Counted from the stretch's first letter, positions 4,336-37,130 are shown. The stretch: 39,192 bases of DNA from a virus (IMGVR_UViG_3300026488_000006:1-39192); one strand, 5' to 3'. Notes: generated by a model not told the origin, from the sequence alone. A program made the numbers and translations.

Positions 4336-5565
4336 CTAGAGCCACTGCCCCAACCGGTGGTTTTTGGCCACATCGCCAAGCTCCCGCTCAAACCTCCGCC
4401 TTATGATTTCGCAGTAGTCCGGATTCATCTCGATACCGACCCAACGCCTACCGAGCTTCTCCGCCACGACGAGAGTAGTCCCTGCTCCAGCAAACGGGTC
4501 GAGGACTACGCCGTCCTTCGGGCAAGCGACCTTAATTAAGAGCTCCGGGACGTCTGGCGGGAAGACCGCAAAGTGGGCGTCCTTGAACGGGCGGACGTTT
4601 ATTTGGATAACATCATTCGGGCGGACTTTGTAATCCCCCTCTCGTATCTTGCGGGCTATTCCTTCGTTGATTTCTCTAGAGCTCCTCGGATAAAGTTCGC
4701 CCTTGTTGTGAGGGCCAACTCTCCAGCGATACTTGGCTCGTTCCCGGGTCAATTCTGACGGTTCTGGTGCGACGGCTTTCCAATCAAAATAATACTTCGG
4801 CCTCTTCGTGAAGTGGAAGATGTACTCCCAGCTGTGGCTGAAGCGGTCTCTGACTGATTCGGGCATGGCGTTACCCTTCGTCGTCCTGTCTTTGTAAAAG
4901 TGCACTTTCTTTGCCCAGATTATTTTCTCCCGCAGAATCCAGCCCTCGTCGTAAACCATCTTGACGGCGAAGAGTTCAGGCACGAGAGCGAGGGACTTTT
5001 TCTTTAGTCCATCTGGCCACGCAACCTTTGGGACGTTGCTCCTCCCGTTCCACTTCGGGTCGTTGTCGTTGCCGAGACCATAACCGTGCCCACCACCAAC
5101 CCACGTGTCGTCAATGTTCACGAAGAGGCTCCCCGTCGGCTTGAGGACACGCTTGACCTCACGGAAAATCTCGACGAGGTGCTCGACAAACATCTGAGGA
5201 GTCGGCTCAAGGCCGAGCTGTCCATACCACGCCCCGCACTTCTTACAGATGAGGGCCGTCCGCTTGTTATACTTCTTTATCCGGGTCGTGCCCCTCGCTC
5301 CGACCACTTCGTCCTGCTTCCCGCGGACGTTGTTTCTGTTCTCGTGCTGAAGGCCAACTTCTTGCCCCACCCACTCGTGGTCGCAGTCCGGGTCGCCTCC
5401 AAAGACGGTGAACGTGGCGTCGCCGTAGTCCCTCTTGGCCCAATAGGGTGGAGAAGTAATTACCACATCCACGCTCTCATCAGGGAGATAGCGGAGCACT
5501 TCGAGGGCGTCTCCACAGTAGAGCCTGCCGAGCCGGGTTTCGAAGTAGGGCTCCATTCCAACCAT
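4336..5565 (-). CDS. DNA methyltransferase, beta-class amino-MTase (N6-adenine or N4-cytosine)
   Basis: Motif IV SPPYW near the N-terminus and motif I DPFAGAGTT near the C-terminus (order IV then I is the beta class). Track ORF 4336..5586; likely start is the ATG at 5565 after RBS GAGGTGGTG. Confidence 0.85.
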   Translation of the reverse strand: MVGMEPYFETRLGRLYCGDALEVLRYLPDESVDVVITSPPYWAKRDYGDATFTVFGGDPDCDHEWVGQEVGLQHENRNNVRGKQDEVVGARGTTRIKKYNKRTALICKKCGAWYGQLGLEPTPQMFVEHLVEIFREVKRVLKPTGSLFVNIDDTWVGGGHGYGLGNDNDPKWNGRSNVPKVAWPDGLKKKSLALVPELFAVKMVYDEGWILREKIIWAKKVHFYKDRTTKGNAMPESVRDRFSHSWEYIFHFTKRPKYYFDWKAVAPEPSELTRERAKYRWRVGPHNKGELYPRSSREINEGIARKIREGDYKVRPNDVIQINVRPFKDAHFAVFPPDVPELLIKVACPKDGVVLDPFAGAGTTLVVAEKLGRRWVGIEMNPDYCEIIRRRFERELGDVAKNHRLGQWL

Positions 5566-5576
5566 CCCGCACCACC

Positions 5577-6314
5577 TCACAGCCACCCCTTCTCGGCCTC
5601 AGCCTCCAGGAAGTCAAGAACCGAGCGGAGGCACTCCTTCAGCTTGGCAACCTTCGCCCGCCTCTGCTGGACCTCCTCGTCGCTCTCGCCGGCGCGCTTC
5701 AGCGTGAGCGTGTCGAGCATCAGCCTGAGGTACTTCGCGTGGGTCCTTGCCTCGTCGAGGCTGTCGCCGTGCACCTGGATGAGGGACTGTCCGTTGAACA
5801 GCACCGCGTCGGCGCCGAAGCGGTAGCCCGCGATGACCACCTCGTCCACGCCCCTGATACCGCTGTCCGGGTCGGCGAAGACCAGGAGCGCGACGGCGCG
5901 GTCGGTGCGGGTGTGTTCATCGAGCTCGACCGGCCCGTGACTACCGGTTAAGCGAAGGCGGTAGATGACTTTCCCGGGCACGGCCACGGCGACGGCCCTG
6001 TCGAGCTCGAACGCCGGGTAGCCGGCCAGCTGGAGCGCCCTGGCGAACACGCGGTTTGGCCCGAGGAGCGTCCAGCCGTACTCTGGGTCGCCCCACTCCT
6101 CGACGAGGCCGGACAGGGACCTTATGAGCTCCCCCAGCGCCTGCTTCGTGAGCGGTAGCCTGTTCTCCTGCCAAAGCGAGCGGAGCTTTTCGGCCAGCTC
6201 GGCCACGCTCTCGCTGTCGGCCACGGCGTCCGCTATGTCGTGGTAGAGCCGGACGAGCTCCGCCCTGTCGGGAATCACTATGTGGTCGAGCTCGTAGCGC
6301 GCCACCTCACGCAC
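5577..6314 (-). CDS. Hypothetical protein (245 aa) immediately upstream of and overlapping the methyltransferase
   Basis: Co-oriented, 3' end overlaps the MTase start; no convincing nuclease motif seen. Confidence 0.55.
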   Translation of the reverse strand: MREVARYELDHIVIPDRAELVRLYHDIADAVADSESVAELAEKLRSLWQENRLPLTKQALGELIRSLSGLVEEWGDPEYGWTLLGPNRVFARALQLAGYPAFELDRAVAVAVPGKVIYRLRLTGSHGPVELDEHTRTDRAVALLVFADPDSGIRGVDEVVIAGYRFGADAVLFNGQSLIQVHGDSLDEARTHAKYLRLMLDTLTLKRAGESDEEVQQRRAKVAKLKECLRSVLDFLEAEAEKGWL

Positions 6315-10818: not shown

Positions 10819-11682
10819 TTATTCCTTGTGGGTGGCCTTCGCGAGGGCGTAGGCCGTCACCAACCCGGCTCCAAGGAGCGCGAGGCCGGCTAAACTATTT
10901 TTTTCCTCCGTCGTGTTGACCCCGGGGCCGGGCCCCGGCCCGGGCCCCTCTGCCGGCTTTATCTCGACAGTTATTGTATTCTGGTAGGCGAGCCGGTCAT
11001 CGACATAAACTTTCACGACTGCCTGTATCGTCCCCTTTGCGTTCTTTGGTATTTGGATGGGTAGGTTAAAGCGGGCTCCATAGGCGCCCTTTGTCGTCAC
11101 CGGGCCGGACTTCACGGTTCCAAACGGCGTGTCCATCTCGGCGAGGAACTTGTGGGTGTTGTAGTCATTCAGCACGCGGGCGTTCACAGTGACGGTTAGG
11201 GTTCCACCCGCCTTGACGGAGCTCGGCGCATTTATGCTCACGTCAACCTTTGGTAGCTGGTACTCGCCTGCCTTGACCTTTGCGCTGGCTATTAGTGTCC
11301 CGCTCGGCACGTCGGCAGGGCTGGCGAAAGCAACGATGGTAACGCCTTCCTCCGGCATCGTTATGTAGCCAACGGTCGCGATTTGGCACTTGTTTAGCTT
11401 AACGGCGCCGAGCTTTGTCCCCTTCTTGTTGCTCGCCGTGATGTAAGCATCCGGCCCTGTCCCCTTAGCGTACCAAACCTCAATGGTCACCGGGAAACTC
11501 TTCCAAATGGCCCAGTCCGGCACGCCGACGATAACCGGCACCTTCTGCCCCGGAGGTGCCGAGGCTGGCACATTGAGTATCTCTTCGGGGCACGGCTGGG
11601 GGGTCGGTTCGGGGCCGGCCTGGCTAACGTTCACCCCAAAGGACTTGGTATCAACAACGTGCCACTCCGCCATCTCCATCAC
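10819..11682 (-). CDS. Putative surface protein (about 285 aa) with C-terminal TM anchor
   Basis: N-terminus MAEWHVVDTKSFGVNV is paralogous to the N-terminus of 12185..12496; PGPGPGPG linker then hydrophobic anchor. True start is probably the third ATG (about 11673). Confidence 0.6.
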   Translation of the reverse strand: MMEMAEWHVVDTKSFGVNVSQAGPEPTPQPCPEEILNVPASAPPGQKVPVIVGVPDWAIWKSFPVTIEVWYAKGTGPDAYITASNKKGTKLGAVKLNKCQIATVGYITMPEEGVTIVAFASPADVPSGTLIASAKVKAGEYQLPKVDVSINAPSSVKAGGTLTVTVNARVLNDYNTHKFLAEMDTPFGTVKSGPVTTKGAYGARFNLPIQIPKNAKGTIQAVVKVYVDDRLAYQNTITVEIKPAEGPGPGPGPGVNTTEEKNSLAGLALLGAGLVTAYALAKATHKE

Positions 11683-11686
11683 CCCC

Positions 11687-12136
11687 TCAACTAAGCAATA
11701 ACAACATGGCGCCGGCGATTAGCCACCAGGGAACGTTCCCTTCCTCCTGAGCTTCCGCCTGGGCCGTTGCCCCCTGTTTGGCGGTGGGCCCGAGGATGGT
11801 CACCGCGAACGTCGCCGTGCCGAGTAGGCGCCCGTACTTGTCCCTTACTTCGAGGGTAAACGTTCTCTTACCGCCCGGGACTGTTCCCTTACACGCAATT
11901 GGATACCCTGTCACCGTGCGTCCGGGAACGACCGTGCACCCCGGCACTTGGACTGCTAAACGGACGATGGTTGGTGGCTGGAGGTCCCTTATCGGGCCCG
12001 CGCGCCACTCGTAGCCCATGCCCTTCAACACGAGGACTGCGTCGAAGGGTACGGGCGCGCCCTTAATCTTGACCCAAACTGTCATGACTTCGCCCGGCCT
12101 ATAAATCTGCTTCTCGGGTATGGCTTCAACTTCCAC
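11687..12136 (-). CDS. Putative membrane-anchored protein (149 aa)
   Basis: RBS AAGGAGGTGAT before GTG start; C-terminal hydrophobic anchor (VPWWLIAGAMLLLLS). Confidence 0.55.
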   Translation of the reverse strand: MEVEAIPEKQIYRPGEVMTVWVKIKGAPVPFDAVLVLKGMGYEWRAGPIRDLQPPTIVRLAVQVPGCTVVPGRTVTGYPIACKGTVPGGKRTFTLEVRDKYGRLLGTATFAVTILGPTAKQGATAQAEAQEEGNVPWWLIAGAMLLLLS

Positions 12137-12184: not shown

Positions 12185-12496
12185 TCAGTAGTAGGCGCTC
12201 AGCGTCACGGTTCCGGTGTAGTACCCCGGCTTGGACGGTGCCGTAAGGTCGAAAGTCAGCTCGACTTTTTGCCCGGCCCTGTATGCTGTCCCGTTCTGTG
12301 AGTATGTCTTGCCGAAGATGTTTATGGTGGCGCTGACTGGCACCGGCCTGTCGGTCGGTATCGCCCACACCGTCACCGTAAACTTCTCCCCGGCGCGCAC
12401 TTCCTTCGGGACGCTTACACCCCATTTTATGTTTGGCGCGGGCATCTGGACGTTCACCCCGAAAGTTTTTTGCCCAACAACGTGCCACGTTGCCAT
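12185..12496 (-). CDS. Hypothetical beta-rich protein (103 aa), paralog of the N-terminal domain of 10819..11682
   Basis: RBS AAGGAGGTGGTG before ATG; shared N-terminal motif MATWHVVGQKTFGVNV. Confidence 0.55.
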   Translation of the reverse strand: MATWHVVGQKTFGVNVQMPAPNIKWGVSVPKEVRAGEKFTVTVWAIPTDRPVPVSATINIFGKTYSQNGTAYRAGQKVELTFDLTAPSKPGYYTGTVTLSAYY

Positions 12497-12538: not shown

Positions 12539-12850
12539 TTATTTGAGCGCCTGGATTAGATACTCAATGAGCGTGATAATTGCCCCTAAAACTGAAATTG
12601 CGCCCCACAAGCGGTTCCTATCCCGTTCGAGGCGCCGGATGCGCTCCTCGTGGTCTTTGAACTTTTCGTCGTGCTCGCTTTTGATTTCCCCAATCATCCG
12701 GGCCACAGAGTCGTTGTTCTCATCTATCTTCCTGCTGAGTTGCGTTAGCATTTCTTTCACCCACTCCATATCCGTGGACAACTTTGCCATAGCAACGGCG
12801 AGCCCTTCCTTCGATAGCAAGCTGGCGTCATAATTGGTTTTGTCATCCAC
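12539..12850 (-). CDS. Coiled-coil protein with C-terminal TM helix (103 aa)
   Basis: RBS GGGGGGTGA before GTG start; heptad-like charged region; hydrophobic C-terminus. Confidence 0.5.
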   Translation of the reverse strand: MDDKTNYDASLLSKEGLAVAMAKLSTDMEWVKEMLTQLSRKIDENNDSVARMIGEIKSEHDEKFKDHEERIRRLERDRNRLWGAISVLGAIITLIEYLIQALK

Positions 12851-12864
12851 CCCATCACCCCCCG

Positions 12865-13155
12865 TTAATCCCAGTCTTCCATTTCAGACCGCTTGTCATT
12901 AACGAGGACCTTATGGAGGGCATCATGGAGCTGGGCAACGTCCAACTTGAGCGCCTCAACGTCGCCAACAAGCTTCCGCACTTGTTCCTTCAGGAGCCTA
13001 ACGTCTTCTTCGAGGTCTCTGATGGACTTTTCCAACGCGGTGACGCGCTCCTCCTTAACGGCCCTTCCTGTTTTTTCCATTAACCACTTTGCCCCAATGA
13101 GGGCGAGCGCCCCACCGGCCAACGTTGACACGAAAGCGCCGAGGTCAAACGCCAT
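12865..13155 (-). CDS. Small membrane protein with N-terminal TM helix and coiled coil (96 aa)
   Basis: RBS GAGGTGAAGGAG before ATG; N-terminal hydrophobic segment. Confidence 0.5.
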   Translation of the reverse strand: MAFDLGAFVSTLAGGALALIGAKWLMEKTGRAVKEERVTALEKSIRDLEEDVRLLKEQVRKLVGDVEALKLDVAQLHDALHKVLVNDKRSEMEDWD

Positions 13156-13519
13156 GCTCCTTCACCTCGATGGTGTACTTGTGGGCGAGCCACCCGTGCC
13201 TTACCGTGATTGACACGCGCCTCGCGTTGCACTTCATAGCGGTGACCCACACCGTGGTTTTCTTGGAGACCTCCAGCTCGATTGAGCCGGAGCCCCTGAC
13301 CTGAGAGCTCCCCTCCACCAGCACTATGAAGTCTGAGCCCGGTACTTCTATCTTGACCTTCACGGGCGTGAAGTACGGCTCAATCTGGGCGCCGAAGATT
13401 ATCGCACCGCTCTGGCTCTTGATTAGCTTTCCGTCGTCGAGCCCGAGCAATGTGACGCTCGCCGGCCCCTTGCCAAGGATGAAATATAGGATTTGGCGGA
13501 GGAGCTCACGCCACCGCAT
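13145..13519 (-). CDS. Hypothetical protein (124 aa)
   Basis: ORF tiled in operon; RBS weak. Confidence 0.45.
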   Translation of the reverse strand: MRWRELLRQILYFILGKGPASVTLLGLDDGKLIKSQSGAIIFGAQIEPYFTPVKVKIEVPGSDFIVLVEGSSQVRGSGSIELEVSKKTTVWVTAMKCNARRVSITVRHGWLAHKYTIEVKEHGV

Positions 13520-13525
13520 ACCGCA

Positions 13526-13996
13526 TCACGGGAATGTTATTGTGACGTAGATGTCGAGCAAGATGGTGTTGTCCTTCGTTATGGCGGGGTCAATGTTCAC
13601 GTGGTTGATGAGCGTGCCGGTGGTGTAGTCGTTGCCGTCCGTGTGCTCATAGATGCCCGCCTCGGTATAGGTGTAGCCGTTCGCCTCCTCGGGCATGTAG
13701 CGGACGTAGTACTGCACCGTGTTGTTGCTGACCGTCAGCTGTCCGGTCTTGGCAGTCGAGGCGACAGGCTGGAAGAGGCCGGTGTCGCTCTCGCTGGGCG
13801 TCCCGGAGCCGGTACCGAGGACCAGCATCCAGTTTGAGGAGCCCTGGCTGTTGCCCCACGCCTGCGCCAGTAACTTCTTGAACTCCGTCGTTAGGACGTT
13901 CTTGCGCTCCACCTCGTCCAACACGGCGCCCGTGCGGGCGTCCCTTATGACGAACTTCCAAACGGCCTTGGCTGTGGCGGTTTCCCCAACCTTCAC
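13526..13996 (-). CDS. Putative structural protein (156 aa), paralog A of an adjacent pair
   Basis: RBS AAGGAGGTGAT before GTG; shares motifs with 14009..14713 (VLGTGSGTP.SD.TGLF, RYMPEE.NG.T.TE.G.YE, KD.T..D.YV.I). Confidence 0.6.
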   Translation of the reverse strand: MKVGETATAKAVWKFVIRDARTGAVLDEVERKNVLTTEFKKLLAQAWGNSQGSSNWMLVLGTGSGTPSESDTGLFQPVASTAKTGQLTVSNNTVQYYVRYMPEEANGYTYTEAGIYEHTDGNDYTTGTLINHVNIDPAITKDNTILLDIYVTITFP

Positions 13997-14008
13997 GTTA
14001 TCACCTCC

Positions 14009-14713
14009 TTAAACTTGGTTCACGTAAATGCTTACGTACACGTCAATCATCTTCGTGTCGTCCTTCTCAATCGGGGACGGCAACATAGCGTGCTCGAAGA
14101 GCTGGCCGTTCTGGTACTCCTGTGGCGGGATGTAGTGGTGCTCATAGACCGGGTTCCCGCCGACGGTCGGCGTGTAGCTGTACCAGTGGAACGGGATGTT
14201 CTCATAGACGCCGACCTCCGTAATGGTTTGACCATTGAGCTCCTCGGGCATGTAGCGGGCCCAGTAGCGCCAGCCGTTGCTCAGCTGTTCGAGCTTTGCG
14301 TCGGCGCCCCACGGCAGGGGTGTGATGACGAGCCTCTCGCCGACCTTCTCGTTCTGGTTGTTGTAGATGTCCTCAACGGAAATGCTGAGGCCGTCTTGAC
14401 CCTCGCCACGGGCCGATGCGTTGATGGGGTTGAACAGTCCGGTGTCGCTCACGTCCGGCGTCCCGGAGCCGGTGCCGAGGACGATTGCCCACTGCGGGCG
14501 CCTGTAAAGGGAGATGTCGTTCGGGCACTGATACGTCTCGTCGGGCTTCTTGTACTCCGCGACGAACTTGCCGGTGAGCCAAGCCTGCTGGAGTAGGGCG
14601 ATGCCGGCCGAGGTGATAACGTTGTCCGTCTCCACCTTCCAGCGCTCGCCGGTCTCAACGTCCGTGACCACGACCATCACGTGCCCCTTGATAATGGCGC
14701 CGTTAAGTTTCAT
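14009..14713 (-). CDS. Putative structural protein (234 aa), paralog B of an adjacent pair
   Basis: RBS GGGGGTGGTTGA before ATG; conserved blocks shared with 13526..13996. Confidence 0.6.
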   Translation of the reverse strand: MKLNGAIIKGHVMVVVTDVETGERWKVETDNVITSAGIALLQQAWLTGKFVAEYKKPDETYQCPNDISLYRRPQWAIVLGTGSGTPDVSDTGLFNPINASARGEGQDGLSISVEDIYNNQNEKVGERLVITPLPWGADAKLEQLSNGWRYWARYMPEELNGQTITEVGVYENIPFHWYSYTPTVGGNPVYEHHYIPPQEYQNGQLFEHAMLPSPIEKDDTKMIDVYVSIYVNQV

Positions 14714-15348
14714 TCAACCACCCCCAGCTCCTTAAGGATGTCTGATAGGGTTTTAACCCGTCTGACCAATCCGATGCCCTTTATTCTGTGACGTATCATC
14801 CAGATGTTGATGAGGCGAGATTTTGTTTCTGGTGGGAGCTGTCCGAGTGTCGTTGTGGTGGGCACGGATTTTCCAATTTTTCTTGCTATTCTTTGTGACG
14901 CTTTGGCCCCGAGTATTTTCTCCCCGTTGATATAAACCCCCTCTGTGCGCAGTTCTACCTTCGAGAAGTCGTCAGGTATGTCGTCTATGCTGAATGGGTC
15001 ATTTGGGTCGTTGTGTTTTAGCATCAAGCTGGTTTGGAACAATACATCGTCGCGAGGGAAGATGTATTGTTCTTCGTTTGGAAGGAGTTCGAGTATTGCC
15101 CGGTCAATATTCTTTATGCCTTCTATGACTTCGACCCCGGGAACATTGCGGTACTGTTCAATATCCCTGTCGTCAACTACGAGACGTATCTCGTAGCCGT
15201 CTTCGAGGTTCTGCACTAATGTGTAGAGGCCGGGGTCTCTTGGATTGATGCCACCTGCCCTTTCTCCTGTTTGGAAGTTCACTTTTATTTTCAGGGCCAC
15301 ATATCTTTTTAAGTTGCGTAAGTCATTCAACAACACCACCTCCTTCAC
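14710..15348 (-). CDS. Hypothetical protein (about 205-212 aa)
   Basis: Start codon ambiguous: RBS AGGAGGTGGTG lies inside the track N-terminus, so the true start may be a TTG near 15330. Lower-GC sequence. Confidence 0.5.
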   Translation of the reverse strand: MKEVVLLNDLRNLKRYVALKIKVNFQTGERAGGINPRDPGLYTLVQNLEDGYEIRLVVDDRDIEQYRNVPGVEVIEGIKNIDRAILELLPNEEQYIFPRDDVLFQTSLMLKHNDPNDPFSIDDIPDDFSKVELRTEGVYINGEKILGAKASQRIARKIGKSVPTTTTLGQLPPETKSRLINIWMIRHRIKGIGLVRRVKTLSDILKELGVVE

Positions 15349-16835
15349 TTACCGCCTATTCCTTGAGTGTCTGACCCAGGAGCTCCGCCTGATTTAACTA
15401 TACTAAAGTCTGAGGGGGACAGTTGGTATAATCTACCGGAGTTATCAGAGTACCAGATAATTTCGGGGCTACCACCTATACCGCGAGGCGTGGATGTGGG
15501 CGCAGATGCGTTGCGTATTATACTAAAATCGTCAGGGGATAGTTCGTATATTGTTGAGGAACGCTGTCCTTTGACAGTCCACACTGTTGAATAATCACCC
15601 CCTGCTCCACCAAGGTAAGATGTTAAACTTTTACTCCTTAGGATAGATAAATCTTGAGTTGATACTTCGTACACATTGCCATTGTTCCAATTGGAGGCCC
15701 AAAATGTGTTGTCATCTCCTCCGGCGCCGGACATACCAATGTATGAGCTACTAAGATGGTTACTGCGCGTCAAGCTGAGGTCTTGGGGTGAAATTTCGCA
15801 AAGATAAGCAAGACCACTGGCAAACCAAATGACATCTTTGTTACCACCTATTCCTTGTGGGTAGGCATAGGGACTGGGTGTTGACCTGACTACTGAAAAA
15901 TCGTTGGGTGAGAGTTCATATATTGTATCATTTCCATCGTCAACGTGCCACACTACGTGTTGGACAACTGGTTCTGTTGAGACCGAGATTGAGTCCACGC
16001 TCGCCTGCTCCTCGGCCAGCGTGCTGAGGGCGCCCTTCTGGTACAGCAACCTGTCGCTGGCGTACACTGAGTTGGCGAAGGCCCTAATGACCAGCGTCTC
16101 CCCGCCCTGCGGAACGTAACCGACAGGTATGTCCTCACTGGCCTGTACTTCGCTTATATCGTAGCTCTCGGCTTCGGAGAAGGTAGCTGATACACCGCCA
16201 TCCACGACCCCAACTTCGCTGACCGAGGAGGTCACGAGGGAAGCAACGTTGTGCGAGCTGGAATCGTTGGTCTCTGCAAGCTCGTCGAACACGAGTTTGA
16301 TGACTTGGGCTTGGTTTATGAGAACGTTTTCCTGTGCGCTAACGGTCTCAATGAGGGTGGGGGTGAGTATTTGGCCGGCCCATACTTCCACATTGGCCTC
16401 GTCGAGGAGGCGCTCGTTTATGGAGGATGTTACACGGTCGGCCGTTTTTGTTGCAACGGAGTCAGTGGCCCCTTGAGTGTCGCCGGCCGTCCGATATTTT
16501 CTCAGCTTGGTATCATAACTTAGGCCGTCGGTGCTGGCCTGCTCCTCGGTCAGTGGCCTGATGACCAGCGGTCTCTCGACTGCCGTCGCGCTGTCGTTAA
16601 TCAGGTACTCAAGCTCCCTTGCCACCACCTCGTCGGCTATTACGGCGATGGCGTCCTCCGGGACGGCGGTTCTTTCTCTGACCGTGTATGCGTACCTGCC
16701 GTGGATTATCACGAGCGTGGTGTCTCCGCTGTGGTGGACCTCGGCCTCGACGGCCTCGCTGAGTAGGTCAATTAACTTCCTCGGCCCGAATCTTGTACTG
16801 CCGACCTTCAGCACCGACGGCCAGCGCCTCCTCAT
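15345..16835 (-). CDS. Repeat-containing protein (496 aa) with beta-propeller-like C-terminal repeats; candidate receptor-binding protein
   Basis: RBS GGGTGGGGTGAAGT before ATG; at least 5 repeats of about 45 aa in the C-terminal half (pattern IYELSP.DFS..RS ... GIGG ... W); AT-richer than neighbours. Confidence 0.6.
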   Translation of the reverse strand: MRRRWPSVLKVGSTRFGPRKLIDLLSEAVEAEVHHSGDTTLVIIHGRYAYTVRERTAVPEDAIAVIADEVVARELEYLINDSATAVERPLVIRPLTEEQASTDGLSYDTKLRKYRTAGDTQGATDSVATKTADRVTSSINERLLDEANVEVWAGQILTPTLIETVSAQENVLINQAQVIKLVFDELAETNDSSSHNVASLVTSSVSEVGVVDGGVSATFSEAESYDISEVQASEDIPVGYVPQGGETLVIRAFANSVYASDRLLYQKGALSTLAEEQASVDSISVSTEPVVQHVVWHVDDGNDTIYELSPNDFSVVRSTPSPYAYPQGIGGNKDVIWFASGLAYLCEISPQDLSLTRSNHLSSSYIGMSGAGGDDNTFWASNWNNGNVYEVSTQDLSILRSKSLTSYLGGAGGDYSTVWTVKGQRSSTIYELSPDDFSIIRNASAPTSTPRGIGGSPEIIWYSDNSGRLYQLSPSDFSIVKSGGAPGSDTQGIGGK

Positions 16836-18163: not shown

Positions 18164-18727
18164 TCATTCCTCCCACCAGTCAACGCGGATGCTAATCTGA
18201 TTGGCGTTTGAGCTTTTGTTGATGACTTCAAAGAGGACGCTGTGTCCCGGTGGTATCACGAAGGCTACGAGGCCCTCGTCCATACCGCCGACCGCTTTGT
18301 TGCCAGAGCCTCCAGGGATGACCTCTTCTCCCACCACAGTACCGCCGGAGTAGTTGGTCACGTCAATGATGACCTGTGCCACGCTCGTTGCAGTGGAACC
18401 GACCCGGAACGGGACGGGCTGTATCTGGGTCCCGCCTTGGAGTGTGGGGTCAATGACGTACTTAATCCACGCCTGGTCTGTCGTGCTCATCTTGGTGGTC
18501 ATGATGTGGATAGTTTTACCGCTCCCGGCCGGGTTGATGATGGTTAGGTCGGCAGTCGCTCCGCTGGAGATGTGGGGCCAAAGCTTTGAAACGAAGAACG
18601 CCTTGTCCTCGCTGGCCTTTATCTGGTACTGGGTGTAGGCGATGGTGTGGTCTGTGTCAGCTTTTGTAATCTTGGCGTTGATTTCTGCCGTGTTGGGGTC
18701 GCTCCTAAACACTCCCGTTACGGTCAC
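18164..18727 (-). CDS. Hypothetical protein (187 aa)
   Basis: ORF tiled in operon. Confidence 0.5.
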   Translation of the reverse strand: MTVTGVFRSDPNTAEINAKITKADTDHTIAYTQYQIKASEDKAFFVSKLWPHISSGATADLTIINPAGSGKTIHIMTTKMSTTDQAWIKYVIDPTLQGGTQIQPVPFRVGSTATSVAQVIIDVTNYSGGTVVGEEVIPGGSGNKAVGGMDEGLVAFVIPPGHSVLFEVINKSSNANQISIRVDWWEE

Positions 18728-19831: not shown

Positions 19832-20515
19832 TCAGAAGTGGGTCTTGAAGAACCTACCGCGGGCGACGGTGAATCCAAGGAGCTTCAGCTCGCCGGTGGT
19901 CGGGCTGGAGCTGTTGGCGTCCGGGCTGTGAACCTCAATCTTGTAGTAGTCCTTCGGAACAATGGGGACGCTGTTAAAGTTCCAGACGGCGACGCCGTTC
20001 CTGTTGTCCTTTATGACGGCGTTGCTAACGTCAATCGGCAGGAGCTGTCTCTGGCCGACGGCGAACCTAATGCCGTCAATCCTGGCGGTGACGTCGGTGC
20101 CGTCGTAGAAGTCAACGATACCGAAGATGAGGTATCCGGCGTCGTCGTGTGCGGTGCCCTCGGCGAGGGTCTTCCACTCGGCGTCGAAGCTGACCTTGAA
20201 CCTGTCGCCGTAGGCAGTGACGCCGGCGCCGAGGGTGCTGTTCCCGCCGTTGTCAACGAAGTGGCCTGGCCTAAGCGGGGTGAGGCCAATCTCCATGTCT
20301 GACGCAACCTGGCCACCGAACTTGGCGCCACCGAGGCTGTGCTTGACAGCCTCAACGAAGCCCCTTATCTGCCTCTTGTAAGTCTGGAGGAGCTCGTAGA
20401 TGACGCCATCCTTGGGGCCGAAGAGGTTGTCGAGCTGGGCGTTCAGCTTGGCCTCTTCCTTCGGGTCGAGTGGAAGGGTGTTAAGGTCGGTGTCAATAGA
20501 CTCGAACCTAACCAT
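19832..20515 (-). CDS. Hypothetical protein (227 aa), candidate virion protein
   Basis: RBS GGGGGTGAAGAGCA before ATG at 20515. Confidence 0.55.
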   Translation of the reverse strand: MVRFESIDTDLNTLPLDPKEEAKLNAQLDNLFGPKDGVIYELLQTYKRQIRGFVEAVKHSLGGAKFGGQVASDMEIGLTPLRPGHFVDNGGNSTLGAGVTAYGDRFKVSFDAEWKTLAEGTAHDDAGYLIFGIVDFYDGTDVTARIDGIRFAVGQRQLLPIDVSNAVIKDNRNGVAVWNFNSVPIVPKDYYKIEVHSPDANSSSPTTGELKLLGFTVARGRFFKTHF

Positions 20516-21007: not shown

Positions 21008-21442
21008 TCAGAGCCCAGCGCCTCTGAAGAACTCTCCAGCCTTGTATGTGCCATACTCTTCGCCCTTCTTCGCCCTAAGCATAGCCTCAAGCTCAGCGAC
21101 GGTGTGGTAGCTCTTCTTGACCCTGCTCGGGTATTCCTCAGGCTTCATAGCGTCTGGGGCGCGGTAACCCCTCATCTCCTCGGATATCCTCCTCAGCCTC
21201 TCGGCGAGAGGCATTCCCTTGGTGGCGCTCGCAATCTTGGCGAACTCCAGCCTGGTCTCAATCTGGCCGAGGTGCGGGCTCTCGATGGTGTACGGGAGGT
21301 TCGCGAGTATAGCTCCGCTCTTCTTGACCCACCAGCGCGCACCGACGCTCTGGATGTAGAATCCCTTAGCTCCGATGTTATTCATAGGAGTTGCCTTACC
21401 GGCGAGACCGGCAACGAGGGTCTGGGGCCTTATCTTCGTCAT
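21008..21442 (-). CDS. Hypothetical protein (about 144 aa), candidate abundant structural protein
   Basis: Track ORF 21008..21532; ATG at 21442 after strong RBS GGAGGTGGTG; own TATA-like box (CATAAATATC) upstream. Confidence 0.5.
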   Translation of the reverse strand: MTKIRPQTLVAGLAGKATPMNNIGAKGFYIQSVGARWWVKKSGAILANLPYTIESPHLGQIETRLEFAKIASATKGMPLAERLRRISEEMRGYRAPDAMKPEEYPSRVKKSYHTVAELEAMLRAKKGEEYGTYKAGEFFRGAGL

Positions 21443-21649
21443 CTCAACACCACCTCCAGTGGTTCTTTTTGTTGCCGGGTTTCGGCCCCCGGTAGGGCTC
21501 CCGGTCTCGTTCTCTGTGTATGTTTTTTGCAAAAGAGATATTTATGTCTTTCGCTCCGCAAAACCCGCCCTTTGCAGAAAGCAATGTTTCGCATGTGGTT
21601 GGTCAACGGTTGAGTTTACAAATGTAAAAGAAAAGGTTGCGTGGCACAG

Positions 21650-22174
21650 TCACTCCAGCGCCCACTCAAGGATGTCGAGGAGCTTGTCGAGCTTTGTCCT
21701 CGGTCTCGCCCACCGCTTGCCCTTCAACAGCTTCACCATCGCCTGACTCTTTGTGAGCAGTTGGCCGTCAACGAGGACGGCCTTCTTACCCACGAGCCCC
21801 GGCCTGCCGAGGTATCTGCCAACGTCCACAACCTCACCACCCACGAGCTCCGCAACCTCCTCGTGGCTCAACTCTCCGGCGAGCTTTGCCAGCTTTGCCA
21901 TTTCCTCCCACGCCTTCCGCTTCGCCTCGGTCGGTGGCTTCTCCGGCGTCCGGCGGAAGTAAATGGTGTCACCCCTTTTGGCAACCACGACGGCCCTTGA
22001 GCCCTTCATAGGCTTCGCCGGCGTGCTCATAGCCTTCCGGTAGAGCCTTTCCAACCTCGCGAGCCTGTCCTGGTCGAGAGGTCCCCCATTCAGCTCCACC
22101 GCCAACGGCGACGGCTTGAGCTTTGGACGCCCTTCTTTGAGCTCGTAGGCGACCTTGGTTAGGAGTGTCTCCAT
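21650..22174 (-). CDS. Hypothetical basic protein (about 174 aa)
   Basis: Track ORF 21650..22219; ATG at 22174 after GAGGTGGTGCTT, directly after the upstream stop. Confidence 0.5.
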   Translation of the reverse strand: METLLTKVAYELKEGRPKLKPSPLAVELNGGPLDQDRLARLERLYRKAMSTPAKPMKGSRAVVVAKRGDTIYFRRTPEKPPTEAKRKAWEEMAKLAKLAGELSHEEVAELVGGEVVDVGRYLGRPGLVGKKAVLVDGQLLTKSQAMVKLLKGKRWARPRTKLDKLLDILEWALE

Positions 22175-22184
22175 AAGCACCACC

Positions 22185-22715
22185 TCAGACGCCGAAGCCG
22201 AGGAAGCCGAGCTTCTCAAGGTCGGTTAGCCGGCGCCTGTTTAGGATTTTCACGCGCCCGTTTTCCCACATCATCACGCCTTCTCTGCTGAAGACCTTTA
22301 AGACCTCCTGCGGGTCTTCGTAGCCGAGCTCCCGGATGCGCTCCATAAGCTCCTGTATGTCGTAGTCGCGCCCGCGCAGGTAATCGTAGGCTCGGTCGTA
22401 GGGCTCCGGGATTTTCGGTATCTCGGCGATGAGCTTTGCGACGGCCTTTTTCACGCCGGTCGCCACGCTCCCGTATTGCCTCTCCAGCTCCCTCGCGTGG
22501 TCGAGGGAGATGTAAACGTTGCTCAGCCGGACGGTCTTATACTTGAGCCTCCTTATCTGCGCGGGGCTGAGCTTGTACCCCCAGCGCCTTTCAATCTCGG
22601 CTTGGAGCGTCTTGTCGGTGAACTTGCTAACGACGGGCATCTTACCCCAGTTCTCCTCGACGAACTCCTCAATCTGAGCCAGCACCGGCGCCGGGATGTC
22701 CGCGAGCCTAACCAT
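22185..22715 (-). CDS. Hypothetical protein (176 aa)
   Basis: ORF directly downstream of the giant gene. Confidence 0.5.
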   Translation of the reverse strand: MVRLADIPAPVLAQIEEFVEENWGKMPVVSKFTDKTLQAEIERRWGYKLSPAQIRRLKYKTVRLSNVYISLDHARELERQYGSVATGVKKAVAKLIAEIPKIPEPYDRAYDYLRGRDYDIQELMERIRELGYEDPQEVLKVFSREGVMMWENGRVKILNRRRLTDLEKLGFLGFGV

Positions 22716-22721
22716 ACCCCA

Positions 22722-25700
22722 TCACCTCAGCTCCTTCCTCAACTCCGCAACGAACTTTTCATATATCTCGTTGAACGGCCAGGGGAATTCTGGCTCGTAG
22801 CCAAGACTCTTCAGCACCGTCGCGGGCACCACTGCGACCAAGTAGAACATCGTGGGCTCGCAAAGCCAGCCCTTCTCGTTCTCTCCGAGCTCGTCCTCAA
22901 ACTTGACCTGCACCGTGAAGTGGTTGTAGTCCGCCTTGTGGCAAATCTTTCTGTGCTTTCTGAGGAAAGCCAGCACGGCAGTACTGTAAGGCTCGCCCGC
23001 CTTAGCATTCCTCTTCAGCCATGCACGTATGAGGCTCGCAACCTTCCTATATACCTCGTGGATGCCACCCTCGACCAGAGCACCGCCCGCCTGCTCCACA
23101 GCGTATAGCGCCATCGCTTCGGCGAACGTCAGCGGGGCCCTCTTCTTCCTGTCTATGTACTCGCCGATGATGTTCTCCCCGAGCCACTTCTTGAGAAAGT
23201 CGGCATACATGCTGGCGTCCGAGTGAGTCTTGGCCTTCTCCTTAAGGTAGCGCTCAACGCCATACCACAGCATAGCTGAGAGCTCGCGCGGGTCTTCGAG
23301 GGCCCGACTGAGCCACTCCGGCACCTCGCCGAGGTACTGGTAGATGTTCTTTGGCTTCGATAGTTCTTTCCTCCGCTCGACTATCTCAGTTGCTGAAACC
23401 ACCCCACCCGAGCGCTTCTTCATCTCGACCGGGAGCTCTCGGCGCCCGACCTTTTGGTTGTACACACTTGTGGCCAACTTCGAGGCTTCGATGACGGCGC
23501 TGTCGAACGGGAGCTCGCCCTTGGCCACCATATCCGCGAGAACCCATAGGTCGCGCTCGATGTCGGGGAGCACGAAGTCGAGGTCAATGTTGCGCTTGAG
23601 TAGTCTGCGGTCGAGGCTCTTGAGTAGGCGCTCATAGGTGGCTCTAACTTCCTCTGGCACTTCCGGTGCTCTTCTTGGCTCAATCTCTTCGCTTATGGCC
23701 TCTTCTTCCGGCGTCAACTCCTTCACCTCCCTTTCGGCCCTGCGCTCGGGTTTTGCACCCAGCATTTTCTTCGCTTCCTCGACCTTCGCCTTCGGCAACG
23801 CCTTCCGCGCCTCCTTCATCACGATGGCCATCGCCCTCGGCTGGGTGAGCCTGCCTTCATAGACCTCGCGGGCGAGGCGCTCGATGAGCTCAAGCGGGGG
23901 CTCCGGCGGTCTGACATCGTGGAGCTCGAAGTAGCCTTCCCAGGTGTCGGTCAGCTTGCGCCTGATGAAGCGGAGGTCTTCCTCCTCCTGCGTCGCCATC
24001 TCGGCGACTTCTTCGAGCGGGAGCTCCGTCGCCTCGCCGTGCACCTTGACCGGGACCTCAACCTCCTCAAGCGGGGCCCCCTCTTTCTCCCCGGCAATAG
24101 TTCTCACCATGGACTCCTCCGGGATTTCGGCCTTCTGCTTCTCCTCCAGCTCGGCCTCAAGCTCCGGTAGCTCTTCCGGTGCCGGCGGTAAGTATTCCTT
24201 CGCCAGCTCGCGGACGTGGCGTGCCCATTCTTCCGGCGTCATCCCGAGGCGCCTGGCGAACTCTTCATCATTGGCCAACTGCTCGACCACTTCCTCGGCG
24301 CTGGTGGCACCGTACTGCTCCGGGTGCTCAAGGGCGTCGCGGATGTAGTCGTCAACCTGCCTCAGCAACTCGGCCCGCTCTTCCGTCTCAGTTGGCTTGA
24401 GCTTCCACCTCATAACCTCGGCTCCAGCCCTCGCGAGGAGCGCCTCCTCCTTGTTGGTCGGGAGCGTCCGGGCGTAGTGGACGAGCATATCATAGACCGT
24501 ACGGAACGGGTAGTAGTCGAGCTTCTGCCAGTCATAGTCTTCGACCTCGCTCGGGCTGATTGCGCCGAGGAGGACGAGCGTCTTGGCCACGCGCTCCGGC
24601 GTCGGCTTTAGGCCGAGGTAAAAGCCGAGCTGGGCGCGCTCTATTGAGGGCTTCGGCTTCTCCTCGCGGGCGGGCTTAGGCTCTGGCTGTGCGGACTTGG
24701 CAGTCCCCGGGACTTCTCTCGGCTTTTCCACCTTCTTCTTGCATTTTTCCACCTGTGGTGCCAGGAAGCGCTCAAAGTACGTAGTCACCAGCTCCTGTAA
24801 GTAGTTGGCTTTGACAAAGTTTAGGTGGCCGGGCTTGAGCTCGCGACGGACGACGTTGTAATACCCGCGGGCGTTGTCTGAGATGTGGCACACGCCGTTG
24901 GGGTAGTGTTTCTCGGGGTACAAAAACTCCTCACGGACGCCGAACTCGCGCTCAAGGTGGCGGGCGAAAACGTCCCTCGGAGCTGTCTTGGCGAACTCCT
25001 CGACTTGCTTCGTGAGCTCCGGCGTCACGTAGCGGACGTTGTAGTTTGGCTCATAAGACTCCGATTGTTTTGCTAATGCCTCAAGCTCAGCCTTTACTCT
25101 GTTGAGCGTCTCCCGCACGTCTTCCATCTGCTCCTTGAGCTCCTCGTCGCTCACGCGCGGGTTGCCTATCATCCTCCCAAGCACGCGCACCTTCACCTTT
25201 AGCGAGTTCTTAATGGTCGTGCTTAGCTTCCAAGGGAGCTTTTCCGGCAGGTTCTTGCGGAGCTCTTCGTATTCCTTGATTAGCTTCCTGGCCTCTTCCT
25301 CAAGCGCAAGGCGCTTTTCCGCCTCGGTGCCGGCCTTTGACTTAACGCCCAGCCCGCTCGTCAGGTAGCCGACGTATTTGCAGAAGTCCGGCATATTGGC
25401 GTCCTTCCACGTGAAGTTGGAGAGGTACTGGGCGAGGTAGAGTATCTCGCGGTCGAGCGGGTTGGCGCCGTGCCACTTGGGGATTTTTCCACGCTTTATG
25501 TCGGCACAGGCCATATCGAGCGGTATGAGCACGGCTTTGACCGGCTCGACCTTCCCGGCGTTGTAAAGCTTCCACGCCATAGCCGTGAGCGCCATGAGCT
25601 CCCTAAGCTTCTTCAGGCAGTCGTAGGGGCTCCTGCTGTCCCTACACAACTTATCGTAGTCGGTCCTCAATAGGATGAGCTTTCCGCCCGACAGGCACCA

Positions 25701-27761
25701 CCCAAGCTTTTTGCGCTCTATGAACTCACATATCTCGTCCGCCGAGACCTCCGCACCCATCCTGGCCAGCCTGCTCACCAGCCCCGGTAGCGTGTCCCAG
25801 ATTGAGAAGACCGTTGGGCTCTTGTTTAGCTTCTCGTCAATTATCTTCATTAATTCCTCGCGCCAGTCCACCTTTTTCGGACTCAGCCTCTCCAGAACTT
25901 CCTTTGTGAGCTCACGGGCGAGTGAGTGGACGCAGGGAACGTACTTACGCGGGTCTTTTCCACGACCAACCTCACAAACCCCGTCGAGCTCGATGGTCTC
26001 GCCGTTCACCCTTGCGCTCAACGTGATGTAGGCGCCGTGTAACTGCCCCAACCTCATCGTCAGCTCGAAGTCGCCCACCGCCGTCTTGACGAGCCACGTT
26101 TTTTCAGCCTGCGTGTCGCTGTTCCATTCCTTGACTGCCTTCCAGTCCAACGGGGGCTTCCCGGTCTCGTGGAGCACTACCTCGTACACCCCGTCGTAAA
26201 GCGCCTTCCGAGCATTCTTCCATACCTCGTTCCAGGGCTCCTTGAGCTCCGGCGGGTTAAGGCGGACTTCGCCGAACTTCTTTGAGAGGCCGGGAACGTT
26301 CATAGTGCGCTCGATGATTTCGAGGGCGTCGGCGATGGCGTTATCAGTCAGCTTCCTTACCCACGCCTTCCGCTTCGGCGACCAGCGGAACCCGTGCGCC
26401 TTGAGCTCGCGCCTAACCTCTGCCGGCGGGGCGCTCGTAAAGACCACCCAGAGCCTATCGTCGGCGTGGTTAGCAATGATTTTCCAGCCGTCACCCTTGG
26501 CCAACACCTGAACACCGCTTGTCGTGCCCTTGGCCTGCGCTTCTTTTTTCTCTAACTCCTCAATACGGGCCTTGAGGCGCTTTATTTTTTCACCAACACG
26601 GCGGAGCTCAAAGTCGGGGAAACCAATCCTGCCCAGCTCGTCCGGCTCCGGCCAAAAGAAGAAGTGGCCGGCCTCTGCAACTTTAAATGCGCCAATCTCT
26701 TTAAGCTTCCTCTCCTTCTCTTCGGGCGTGAGCTTCTTTGAGCGGATGATTTTGTTCGCTTCCTTCATTATCTCACGGCGCTTTTCGAGTATCGCCAACT
26801 CTTCCTTTAACCTCTCCAGTTCGCCAACGGCCTTTTTGTTCACGGCGCCCTGCTTCAGAGCTTCCTGCTCCTTCTTCAGCTCCTCTGCCAATTTATCAAG
26901 CTTCTTAAAGGCGTTCTTGATGAACTCGTCGAGCGCTGACAGCTTCCTATGTTCAGTCCGCCAGAGCTTTTCGAGCCGGTCTTGGCTCGGCATCCTCGCC
27001 GGCCCAACCACGTGGGCGCTCGGAATTCTCGCCCTCGTCGTTAAGTAGTCCTCATAAAGCTCAATGTAGCGCTTCGAAAAGTTTTGTATCAACCTCTTCG
27101 CCCGTTCGGGGCCGATGAGCGGGCAGAGCTTCTGCACCTTCTCAGCGTAGCGGTTCAGAGTGCGGAGGTAAGAGAGCTGGTCATACTCCGCGTCTTTCTC
27201 CGGGGTCCACGAATTAATAGAATACGCGCCCTTCGCCCGCTCAAACGGGAACGGTGTAACTTTGACGGGGATTATATCAGCCTTCCCGCCATAGTAACAC
27301 TCGATTTCAAGCGTCCAATTGTCCTGAATAAACGGGCCCCGTTCCCGCTTCGCCCTAACAACTGTCAAGATTTTATCAACGGGGCGCTCAAGCTCTTCTA
27401 CAAGAGAGTTCAATTGCGGGAGCTCGGATTTAAGCCTCTCAATAGCACCCTTGAGCTTCTCAACGTCTTCTGGTGTGAATTTATAGCGCCCAATGTCGGC
27501 CTCTCTCATTAAGTCGCGGTAGCGGTCAATGAGCTTATTCACGGCCACCCAGTCCCTCCACAGCCTCAAGAACTCCTCAACGCGCTCTTTCATCCCGGGC
27601 GGGAACTCCTCGCCGGCCTGTCTAATCTCATCTATATGTTCCTTGAGCCATAGGGCGCGGACGTAGTTCTTCATATCCTTTGTTCCCGAGAACCACCCGT
27701 TTTCGGCCCGGATGTCGTTAAACTCCCAGATGAGCTTTTGGACTTCATCGTACAGGTTCAC
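22722..27761 (-). CDS. Giant multidomain protein (1,679 aa) of unknown function
   Basis: Uninterrupted 5 kb ORF; GTG start at 27761 after RBS GGGGGTGGTGGC; coiled-coil-like and highly acidic/basic segments; no Walker A, no polymerase or primase motif that I could confirm. Confidence 0.7.
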   Translation of the reverse strand: MNLYDEVQKLIWEFNDIRAENGWFSGTKDMKNYVRALWLKEHIDEIRQAGEEFPPGMKERVEEFLRLWRDWVAVNKLIDRYRDLMREADIGRYKFTPEDVEKLKGAIERLKSELPQLNSLVEELERPVDKILTVVRAKRERGPFIQDNWTLEIECYYGGKADIIPVKVTPFPFERAKGAYSINSWTPEKDAEYDQLSYLRTLNRYAEKVQKLCPLIGPERAKRLIQNFSKRYIELYEDYLTTRARIPSAHVVGPARMPSQDRLEKLWRTEHRKLSALDEFIKNAFKKLDKLAEELKKEQEALKQGAVNKKAVGELERLKEELAILEKRREIMKEANKIIRSKKLTPEEKERKLKEIGAFKVAEAGHFFFWPEPDELGRIGFPDFELRRVGEKIKRLKARIEELEKKEAQAKGTTSGVQVLAKGDGWKIIANHADDRLWVVFTSAPPAEVRRELKAHGFRWSPKRKAWVRKLTDNAIADALEIIERTMNVPGLSKKFGEVRLNPPELKEPWNEVWKNARKALYDGVYEVVLHETGKPPLDWKAVKEWNSDTQAEKTWLVKTAVGDFELTMRLGQLHGAYITLSARVNGETIELDGVCEVGRGKDPRKYVPCVHSLARELTKEVLERLSPKKVDWREELMKIIDEKLNKSPTVFSIWDTLPGLVSRLARMGAEVSADEICEFIERKKLGWCLSGGKLILLRTDYDKLCRDSRSPYDCLKKLRELMALTAMAWKLYNAGKVEPVKAVLIPLDMACADIKRGKIPKWHGANPLDREILYLAQYLSNFTWKDANMPDFCKYVGYLTSGLGVKSKAGTEAEKRLALEEEARKLIKEYEELRKNLPEKLPWKLSTTIKNSLKVKVRVLGRMIGNPRVSDEELKEQMEDVRETLNRVKAELEALAKQSESYEPNYNVRYVTPELTKQVEEFAKTAPRDVFARHLEREFGVREEFLYPEKHYPNGVCHISDNARGYYNVVRRELKPGHLNFVKANYLQELVTTYFERFLAPQVEKCKKKVEKPREVPGTAKSAQPEPKPAREEKPKPSIERAQLGFYLGLKPTPERVAKTLVLLGAISPSEVEDYDWQKLDYYPFRTVYDMLVHYARTLPTNKEEALLARAGAEVMRWKLKPTETEERAELLRQVDDYIRDALEHPEQYGATSAEEVVEQLANDEEFARRLGMTPEEWARHVRELAKEYLPPAPEELPELEAELEEKQKAEIPEESMVRTIAGEKEGAPLEEVEVPVKVHGEATELPLEEVAEMATQEEEDLRFIRRKLTDTWEGYFELHDVRPPEPPLELIERLAREVYEGRLTQPRAMAIVMKEARKALPKAKVEEAKKMLGAKPERRAEREVKELTPEEEAISEEIEPRRAPEVPEEVRATYERLLKSLDRRLLKRNIDLDFVLPDIERDLWVLADMVAKGELPFDSAVIEASKLATSVYNQKVGRRELPVEMKKRSGGVVSATEIVERRKELSKPKNIYQYLGEVPEWLSRALEDPRELSAMLWYGVERYLKEKAKTHSDASMYADFLKKWLGENIIGEYIDRKKRAPLTFAEAMALYAVEQAGGALVEGGIHEVYRKVASLIRAWLKRNAKAGEPYSTAVLAFLRKHRKICHKADYNHFTVQVKFEDELGENEKGWLCEPTMFYLVAVVPATVLKSLGYEPEFPWPFNEIYEKFVAELRKELR

Positions 27762-36320: not shown

Positions 36321-37130
36321 TCACACATTCGAAATCACCTCAGTAAGGCTTTTCTGACGGGAGTTTTGGAACCCATCTAATAACCGAACCCAATGGAGTA
36401 CTCTCTGTCGTATCTGCATCCAGATAGGCTTAGAGTTCTTCACGCGGTCAATACCATACCTATATGCCAAACTGTCCGCCGAGTAAAGAGCTTCTCTCAC
36501 GTCAGGATACCTGAGCACTCCAAACTTTACTCCAAAAGCGTGCAACTTAACCCTCCTTGGTGTCGCTTCTCTTATTGCGAGTATGTATCTCCGTATTTGC
36601 GGTTCTTGCCCGCGCCGGCACATTGTGCCGAGGCCGAGAAGTTCAGTCAGGAGACCATGCTCCTTCATATAATCGAGCATCCAGAGATAGTCGTCAAGCG
36701 CCCACCCCTGCAATACTGCCACAAAGTGCTTCTTAAGTTCAGGATACTGGTCGTCAATTAGATTCTGAATTACAATCTGGTTTTCTATCGTTTTCATCTG
36801 ATTTTCTCGAACCGTGCGACCCCACTTCTTGCGGACTTCCGGTTCGCACGGATAATCCCTATTCGCAAAGAGGACATTCTCAAAGCGTCCAGAATTGAGC
36901 TGACGAAGGACAAACTCAAGGTAGCGCTCGTGTGGGTCCGGGTATTCTTGCATGCGGTAAAAAAAGCTGAAGCCTCCGCTGTCAATGAACAACCAGCTTG
37001 TGTTCCTAGGTGGGGTTCTAACTCTGGAAGCATAGTTAATCATAACATTGAACTTGCGCGGAGCGAGGCTTTCAAATGCCTTTTTTGCTGAACCATCCCC
37101 CACACCAAAAAAGAAACTAAACACGGCCAT
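36321..37130 (-). CDS. TGT-family transglycosylase, DpdA-like (7-deazaguanine DNA transglycosylase candidate)
   Basis: Motif WLFIDSGGFSFF matches the tRNA-guanine transglycosylase active-site motif (E. coli Tgt ILTDSGGFQVF); downstream blocks align loosely with TGT (VAVLQG, LLGLGTM, YSADSL); no CxCxxC...H zinc site. Track ORF 36321..37271 starts at a TTG; ATG at 37130 follows RBS AGGAAGGAGCGTG. Confidence 0.7.
   Translation of the reverse strand: MAVFSFFFGVGDGSAKKAFESLAPRKFNVMINYASRVRTPPRNTSWLFIDSGGFSFFYRMQEYPDPHERYLEFVLRQLNSGRFENVLFANRDYPCEPEVRKKWGRTVRENQMKTIENQIVIQNLIDDQYPELKKHFVAVLQGWALDDYLWMLDYMKEHGLLTELLGLGTMCRRGQEPQIRRYILAIREATPRRVKLHAFGVKFGVLRYPDVREALYSADSLAYRYGIDRVKNSKPIWMQIRQRVLHWVRLLDGFQNSRQKSLTEVISNV

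Follow-up and report, generated by a model that had tools for sequence, protein, structure and literature searches.

The domain at the tail-fibre N-terminus and in baseplate adaptors is known from several kinds of viruses. In fibres of the PF12571 family (Phage_tail_fib, the tail-collar fibre N-terminal domain), to which P2 gpH belongs, a shaft and a receptor-binding tip follow the domain in the same chain, and the bacterial podovirus GP4 has both the fibre I protein gp80 (PF23140) and a fibre-tail adaptor (PDB 8jou_a, 136 amino acids [aa]). Haloferax tailed virus 1 (HFTV1), an archaeal siphovirus, has the domain twice in tandem in one chain of its baseplate hub protein gp44 (PDB 9h4p chain BD), a multidomain protein of 954 aa that begins with a gp27/MuSo2-like hub, anchors the tail fibres of this siphovirus tail, and bears a distal, C-terminal carbohydrate-binding domain (PMC12494034). 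The phi812 arm segment gp118, A511 gp105, and T4 gp8 are dimers in myovirus baseplates, and the phi812 arm-segment dimers reinforce the arms that carry receptor-binding proteins (PMC13433997). Outside tailed viruses, the only cultured carriers are the betalipothrixviruses, which are linear, filamentous, enveloped crenarchaeal viruses; their ORF164 family (AFV9 YP_001798574, as well as AFV3, AFV6, and AFV8) consists of stand-alone proteins of about 160 aa encoded by a single-copy gene, and we found no paper discussing it. Here we describe an adjacent gene pair at positions 13526-14713 of IMGVR_UViG_3300026488_000006:1-39192, a viral stretch of 39,192 nucleotides (nt) that was analysed as a whole (hereafter, the window). 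The products of 156 and 234 aa are new, remote members of this very widespread domain, and the unusual part is their setting, an apparently non-tailed, unclassified archaeal virus.

The gene pair and its domain superfamily

The two genes, like all other window genes for which coordinates are given below, lie on the minus strand. The gene for the 156-aa protein (13526-13996) has a GTG start, and the gene for its 234-aa paralog (14009-14713) has an ATG start. The 12-nt spacer between them (13997-14008) contains GGAGGTGA, a Shine-Dalgarno-like motif that, as read from the sequence, lies 4 nt upstream of the GTG, and the start codon of the 234-aa gene is part of an ATGA overlap with the stop of an upstream gene for a 212-aa protein. 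Because of this motif and this overlap, both genes look real, functional, and co-transcribed in one operon. An earlier sequence-only reading had described an adjacent pair of paralogous, beta-rich proteins, and both open reading frames (ORFs) were found exactly where it had placed them. Pairwise alignment confirmed that the paralogy is far beyond chance (BLASTP, 77 bits, E value 1e-22, 30% identity in a gapped 216-column alignment), and the three blocks that had been listed as shared, VLGTGSGTP.SD.TGLF, RYMPEE.NG.T.TE.G.YE, and KD.T..D.YV.I, were all recovered in collinear order. The core is identical at 65 of 154 aligned positions (42%) in the family alignment. To this core the larger protein adds three loop insertions, namely residues 51-71 (21 aa, placed after residue 52 of the 156-aa copy), 103-137 (35 aa, after residue 83), and 177-198 (22 aa, after residue 122). 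Two of the three insertion sites are the usual length-variable loops of the family, with insertions there in 54 and 36 of 57 relatives, respectively.

Pfam and PHROG scans covered about 40 window proteins, including every ORF of at least 350 aa. The 156-aa protein matched phrog_18275 (E value 2.2e-17) over its full length, with protein residues 2-153 on positions 2-161 of the 164-position profile, and phrog_5417 (6.5e-15); the 234-aa protein matched the same two profiles with E values of 2.9e-6 and 2.8e-4, respectively. Both are uncharacterised viral protein families, and the former includes the betalipothrixvirus ORF164 proteins, which were the sole homologs in isolated viruses (29 to 31% identity, E values from 1e-13 to 7e-16). 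Besides, both products matched phrog_4176, annotated as "tail fiber protein" (1e-7 for the 156-aa and 8.4e-5 for the 234-aa protein), and the PHROG matches of intermediate relatives carried the annotations tail fiber, tail collar fiber, and baseplate wedge. Among 107 wider relatives, 17 matched PF12571 at an E value of 0.001 or less (best, 5e-6) and 9 matched PF23140, the family of GP4 fibre I gp80; the window proteins themselves had no PF23140 match, and the 234-aa protein had no PF12571 match in the Pfam scan. The motifs LGTG.G.P...DT.L and NG.T..E.G.Y occur in the same order in P2 gpH/PF12571 and in phrog_4176, phrog_4618, and phrog_1780. An hhalign comparison with residues 1-200 of P2 gpH placed these motifs in register (E value 2.9e-4, 93 columns, probability 41%), and Gly-61, Gly-63, Pro-67, and Glu-112 were invariant across the family alignment, P2 gpH included. 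By these profiles, the 156-aa protein is a sub-threshold, remote member of the PF12571 superfamily.

A link to a solved structure was obtained when the 107-sequence family profile was compared with the PDB sequence set: HFTV1 gp44 was matched with an E value of 7.6e-15 in two tandem stretches, residues 403-508 and 517-569. The profile of the close family gave only a spurious match (E value 2.6), and the gp44 link appeared only with the broader profile. Sequence as well as fold thus establishes homology with a structurally solved baseplate protein from a tailed virus of archaea.

An AlphaFold model of the 156-aa copy, built on an alignment of 58 of its 83 metagenomic homologs, showed eight strands and one helix (predicted local distance difference test [pLDDT] score of 90.2; predicted template-modelling [pTM] score of 0.84), in keeping with the description as beta-rich. 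Its fold is that of experimentally solved tail-fibre N-terminal and baseplate adaptor domains. In fold comparison, the model scored 12.5 against the HFTV1 baseplate hub gp44, 8.3 against the phi812 baseplate protein, 7.7 against the GP4 fibre-tail adaptor, 7.5 against a T4-like gp7, 6.4 against the Sf14 neck protein, 6.2 against phiKZ gp139, 5.9 against a second wedge subunit, and 5.1 against the Bxb1 tail wing arm. Foldseek likewise ranked HFTV1 gp44 first (E value 1.7e-4), followed by the phi812 arm segment and A511 gp105. The arm-segment type, including T4 gp8, has no detectable sequence similarity to the pair. Based on sequence and fold together, it is very probable that both genes encode soluble, stand-alone paralogs of the tail-fibre N-terminal/baseplate adaptor domain superfamily (PF12571/PF23140).

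The locus differs from each of the described systems in its architecture. The tandem domains that HFTV1 gp44 holds in one chain are two separate small proteins here, in a genome without detected tail genes, and the domain that PF12571 fibres join to a shaft and a tip stands alone. The window virus is also unlike the podovirus that carries the GP4 adaptor, and it differs from the betalipothrixviruses both in the second gene copy and in its circular genome. The window was rejected as a lipothrixvirus, as its assembly is circular and only one gene is in common. In AFV9, the ORF164 gene adjoins those of ORF293 and ORF1170 (1170 aa), the latter sharing a segment with large rudivirus proteins.

Distribution and gene neighbourhood

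The 156-aa protein is the widespread and conserved copy. It has 83 metagenomic homologs. Homologs with 46 to 99% identity lie on many independent metagenomic contigs, and when 1.84 billion cluster representatives were searched in full with HMMER, 4028 relatives reached an E value of 1e-3 or less (478 at 1e-10 or less), most of which are stand-alone proteins of 145 to 185 aa. On IMG/VR contigs, the domain either stands alone (170 to 210 aa) or forms the N terminus of fibre-like proteins of 450 to 580 aa. One such contig (L015) has the gene order tail terminator, tape measure, 113-aa gene, 463-aa gene, and a 504-aa domain-bearing protein; the sizes and order of ORFs are the same in another (L018), as seen from the ORF layout. 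In a third (L017), the gene immediately before a stand-alone member encodes a protein that matches tail-protein PHROGs and, weakly, baseplate-hub PHROGs.

The 234-aa type is restricted to a narrow lineage, having close homologs in only three clusters. The pair as such recurs at one related locus (L009), with 52% identity for the 234-aa and 80% for the 156-aa protein. The two paralogs are not both universal in the virus group, since five of eight related loci (L007, L008, L021, L022, and L023) have one copy each, and another (L006, 10001-11100) has a different adjacent pair of 181 and 180 aa. In a rough neighbour-joining distance tree, which lacks support values and is indicative only, the 234-aa type fell outside the main clade and the two L006 copies were split. 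Three metagenomic proteins of 267 to 315 aa (P0135, P0163, and P0173) hold two copies of the domain in single chains. Tandem doubling is thus recurrent, the L006 pair and the fused proteins being independent cases in other lineages and gp44 a further tandem case. A unit of two copies, stacked or paired, therefore seems to be functionally favoured, though not universally required.

In its own virus group, the family member is always preceded by one or two proteins of 275 to 930 aa. The window has a 496-aa candidate receptor-binding protein there (15345-16835), a putative partner of the pair, which combines conserved residues 1-272 with a C-terminal array of about five 41-aa repeats (IYELSPxDFS...GIGG) and has no Pfam or PHROG assignment. 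The repeat array is possibly a propeller. Between this gene and the pair lies the gene for the 212-aa protein (14710-15348), whose stop overlaps the 234-aa start; this protein had no significant Pfam or PHROG match and no tblastn match in L009 or L021, and on the latter ground we regard the gene as part of a variable cassette. Immediately downstream of the pair, a 124-aa protein (13145-13519) without a Pfam or PHROG family match has a counterpart of 49% identity at the same relative position in L009.

Comparison with L009 (3451-5642) separates a conserved from an exchanged part. A 324-aa protein of L009 matches residues 1-272 of the 496-aa protein with 49% identity, and the 156-aa protein is conserved at the 80% identity given above; the distal part is exchanged, a separate 402-aa protein standing in place of the 41-aa repeat array and the 212-aa protein. 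At the same position, L021 has a 401-aa protein with a precomputed DUF2341 (PF10102) match. The 402-aa protein of L009 resembles DUF2341/ConA-type lectins when its sequence is judged by eye. From these alignments, a conserved proximal part followed by a swapped distal cassette reads as the signature of host-recognition modules.

Possible role of the pair

We propose that the pair are low-copy (minor) virion proteins that form an oligomeric adaptor linking the virion body to exchangeable receptor-binding proteins, a reading based on analogy to which we assign a probability of roughly 0.55 to 0.6. It is drawn from the fact that all characterised relatives, among them fibre N termini, the gp44 segment that lies between the hub and the carbohydrate-binding domain, the GP4 adaptor, and the phi812 arm segments, place the domain between an anchor and distal receptor-binding parts, as well as from a fitting gene position and a core that is conserved while its neighbours vary. 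Both proteins would oligomerise, by analogy with fibre N termini and gp44 probably as trimers, either in two stacked layers or as a mixed complex. One side of the adaptor would dock on the virion body, probably at a vertex complex of a non-tailed, SPV1-like shell; such a body is proposed because the genome is circular and lacks a terminase, portal, HK97-type capsid protein, and tape measure. The other side would hold the exchangeable receptor-binding proteins whose genes lie directly upstream, namely the 496-aa protein with its repeats and the 212-aa one. With its three loop insertions, the 234-aa copy would have a distinct interface, either for a different partner or as an exposed surface.

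Several observations weigh against the adaptor. The 156-aa protein reaches PF12571 with 21.1 bits (E value 3.3e-4), which is under the Pfam gathering threshold of 23 bits, and only 6 of 58 close relatives match this family at an E value of 0.01 or less. The structural neighbours differ from each other, fibre N termini and gp44 being trimers and phi812 gp118 and T4 gp8 being dimers. Furthermore, no tail or baseplate genes were found in the window by Pfam and PHROG scans and tblastn, and ORF164, the homolog in AFV9, carries only the annotation "hypothetical" and is absent from the proteins annotated as part of the virion.

The sequence-only reading had suggested a capsid or structural pair, of which the structural part is probably right and the capsid part is not. 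Adjacent, beta-rich paralogs of unequal size would suit small and large single-jelly-roll major capsid proteins that form heteromeric capsomers, as in viruses with two capsid proteins. SPV1 (Portogloboviridae), whose circular genome lacks a packaging ATPase, indeed has two capsid proteins of the single-jelly-roll type (VP4 and VP10), and its vertex complexes are believed to bind receptors (PMC8459092); the window resembles it in that no FtsK/A32-type ATPase was found in the scanned ORFs, as the sequence-only reading had observed. However, the structure prediction that it had called for contradicts the capsid role: no capsid jelly-roll stood above noise among the structural matches of the 156-aa model, and the fold is not the eight-stranded jelly-roll of known capsid proteins such as the SPV1 pair or those of the sphaerolipovirus type. 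Homology also speaks against this role, as does the fact that the second copy is distributed patchily, and the genome has a better capsid candidate at another locus, so that we regard the role as extremely unlikely. The better candidate for a single-jelly-roll capsid protein is a 227-aa protein (19832-20515) whose best structural match is the SPV1 capsid protein VP4; no sequence link to solved structures or SPV1 was found for the 227-, 224-, or 187-aa proteins of the window. The analogy to SPV1 may fit the genome at this other locus: the 227-aa protein, perhaps together with the beta-rich 224-aa protein next to it, would form the shell, and the paralog pair would then belong to an attachment complex at the vertices; both proposals are suggestive only. 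The capsid assignment is thereby moved from the pair to the 227-aa (possibly also the 224-aa) gene.

Since every characterised relative of the domain sits in a tail, the window might instead belong to a highly divergent tailed virus, with the pair as ordinary baseplate or fibre proteins of a conventional tail; its circular assembly would also be expected from a circularly permuted, headful-packaged genome. Yet neither a terminase, portal, or HK97-type capsid protein nor a tail tube or tape measure was detected in the scanned ORFs by Pfam and PHROG, and the pair does not co-occur with a Caudoviricetes tail module. When the 14 proteins of the structural module were concatenated and searched, no tblastn match was obtained among 50,697 records of phages and archaeal viruses. 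The leading capsid candidate is of the jelly-roll and not of the HK97 type, and homologs also occur in the undoubtedly non-tailed lipothrixviruses, all of which makes a tailed virus very unlikely.

Two further explanations were considered. If the pair were the receptor-binding adhesins themselves, they would form lectin-like trimers exposed at the surface of the virion, with the 234-aa insertions as the binding site, which would agree with their place in the host-recognition part of the structural module, with the length-variable loops of the family, and with a duplication and loop insertions that resemble adhesin diversification. The opposite of a specificity determinant is found in the core, which is strongly conserved, the 156-aa copy persisting in L009 while the upstream cassette is swapped; besides, fused relatives carry the domain at the N terminus, on the proximal, anchoring side, and their other domains lie further out, and no carbohydrate-binding module was among the top structural matches of the 156-aa model. 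We therefore consider adhesins unlikely. Outside the virion, the proteins might act within the cell, for instance by chaperoning or scaffolding the assembly of the attachment apparatus, or at the surface of the host. Such a role would explain why the AFV9 homolog is not listed among virion proteins and would match small proteins after fibre genes that are sometimes assembly factors. It seems quite unlikely, given that all structural relatives are built into virions, that relatives have the domain covalently joined into fibres and hubs, and that hydropathy revealed no hydrophobic or transmembrane segment suggesting surface export in either protein (no signal-peptide predictor was run).

Beyond the proposed adaptor role, a wider evolutionary reading is possible, though we hold it tentatively and with the odds somewhat against it. 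A fibre-docking domain of tailed viruses (Duplodnaviria) would have been taken over by at least two unrelated non-tailed archaeal lineages, there mounting exchangeable receptor-binding proteins, and in the window it would form a heteromeric two-layer adaptor mimicking the tandem domains of the HFTV1 hub. The two lineages meant are the betalipothrixviruses (Adnaviria) and an undescribed one whose genomes are circular and 39 kb long and whose shell protein would be a jelly-roll of the SPV1-like kind. If this is true, the domain would be a cross-realm "plug" for host-recognition modules in a virus group without a cultured member. If the non-tailed context is true, parts of the attachment apparatus would be shown to move between virus realms without common capsid or replication genes, and the domain would help to locate receptor-binding proteins in genomes of archaeal viruses in which no genes can otherwise be recognised. 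The adaptor assignment also provides a testable functional label for a large, mostly unannotated family (4028 clusters, including phrog_5417, phrog_18275, and betalipothrixvirus ORF164) and marks the location of host-recognition genes in this uncultured virus group.

The genome and its other genes

The window has an exact 127-bp direct terminal overlap (1-127 and 39066-39192). This element also exists as an independent assembly in ENA, whose 39,206 bp correspond to 39,065 bp plus a 141-bp overlap equal to the k (word size) of that assembler, whereas the window is 39,065 bp plus 127 bp. Because of the terminal overlap and the agreement of both assemblies on the unit, we take the genome to be complete, circular or circularly permuted, and 39,065 bp in length. 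It has no tRNA genes, and the minus strand carries about 33 genes between 27.8 and 0.1 kb. One related locus lies within a metagenome-assembled genome of Thermoproteota, and the hosts of the virus group are probably Thermoproteota archaea. The element is an undescribed archaeal virus lineage known only from metagenomes.

Pfam and PHROG assignments were limited to a UvrD-like helicase, an N6/N4 methyltransferase, a DpdA-like protein, DUF7336, a primase-like region, and sub-threshold coiled-coil families. The DpdA-like transglycosylase (36321-37271; PF23859, E value 2e-20), the N6/N4 DNA methyltransferase (4336-5586), and the UvrD-like helicase (138-1802) hint at DNA modification, possibly with 7-deazaguanine, as protection against host restriction. 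A highly charged, helix-rich protein of 1679 aa (22722-27761) had no Pfam match, and its residues 206-482 matched phrog_19458, annotated as "primase" (E value 1.4e-34); based on this match, it may be a giant replication protein.

Downstream of the pair are two small coiled-coil proteins of 96 aa (12865-13155) and 103 aa (12539-12850). The 96-aa protein has a hydrophobic N terminus by eye, which is under the hydropathy threshold used, and its architecture recalls by analogy the pyramid-forming egress proteins of Sulfolobales viruses. The 103-aa coiled-coil protein has a C-terminal transmembrane segment and a sub-threshold DUF7201 match. These genes are followed by a cluster of beta-rich proteins (10819-11682, 11687-12136, and 12185-12496) with weak, sub-threshold Ig-like Pfam matches, which may be envelope or membrane proteins. 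The 103-aa and 287-aa beta-rich proteins have the N-terminal motif WHVV..K.FGVNV in common, implying another paralog set. Hydrophobic, anchor-like tails were seen by eye in the 149-aa and 287-aa proteins, again under the hydropathy threshold used.

The genes for a hydrophobic 145-aa protein and the capsid candidate are directly preceded by those of two adjacent basic, partly helical proteins (21008-21532 and 21650-22219), which by analogy with SPV1 VP1 could be nucleoproteins or DNA-condensing proteins. For both, gene callers elsewhere use internal Met starts (144 and 174 aa). Finally, the 187-aa beta-rich protein (18164-18727), with a weak phrog_5335 match, shows 79% identity to its counterpart in L021. 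In L009 the value is only 39%, even though L009 is in other respects the closer relative, and in the distant L006 it is 35%. This mosaic conservation, as far as sequence identities can tell, suggests module exchange.
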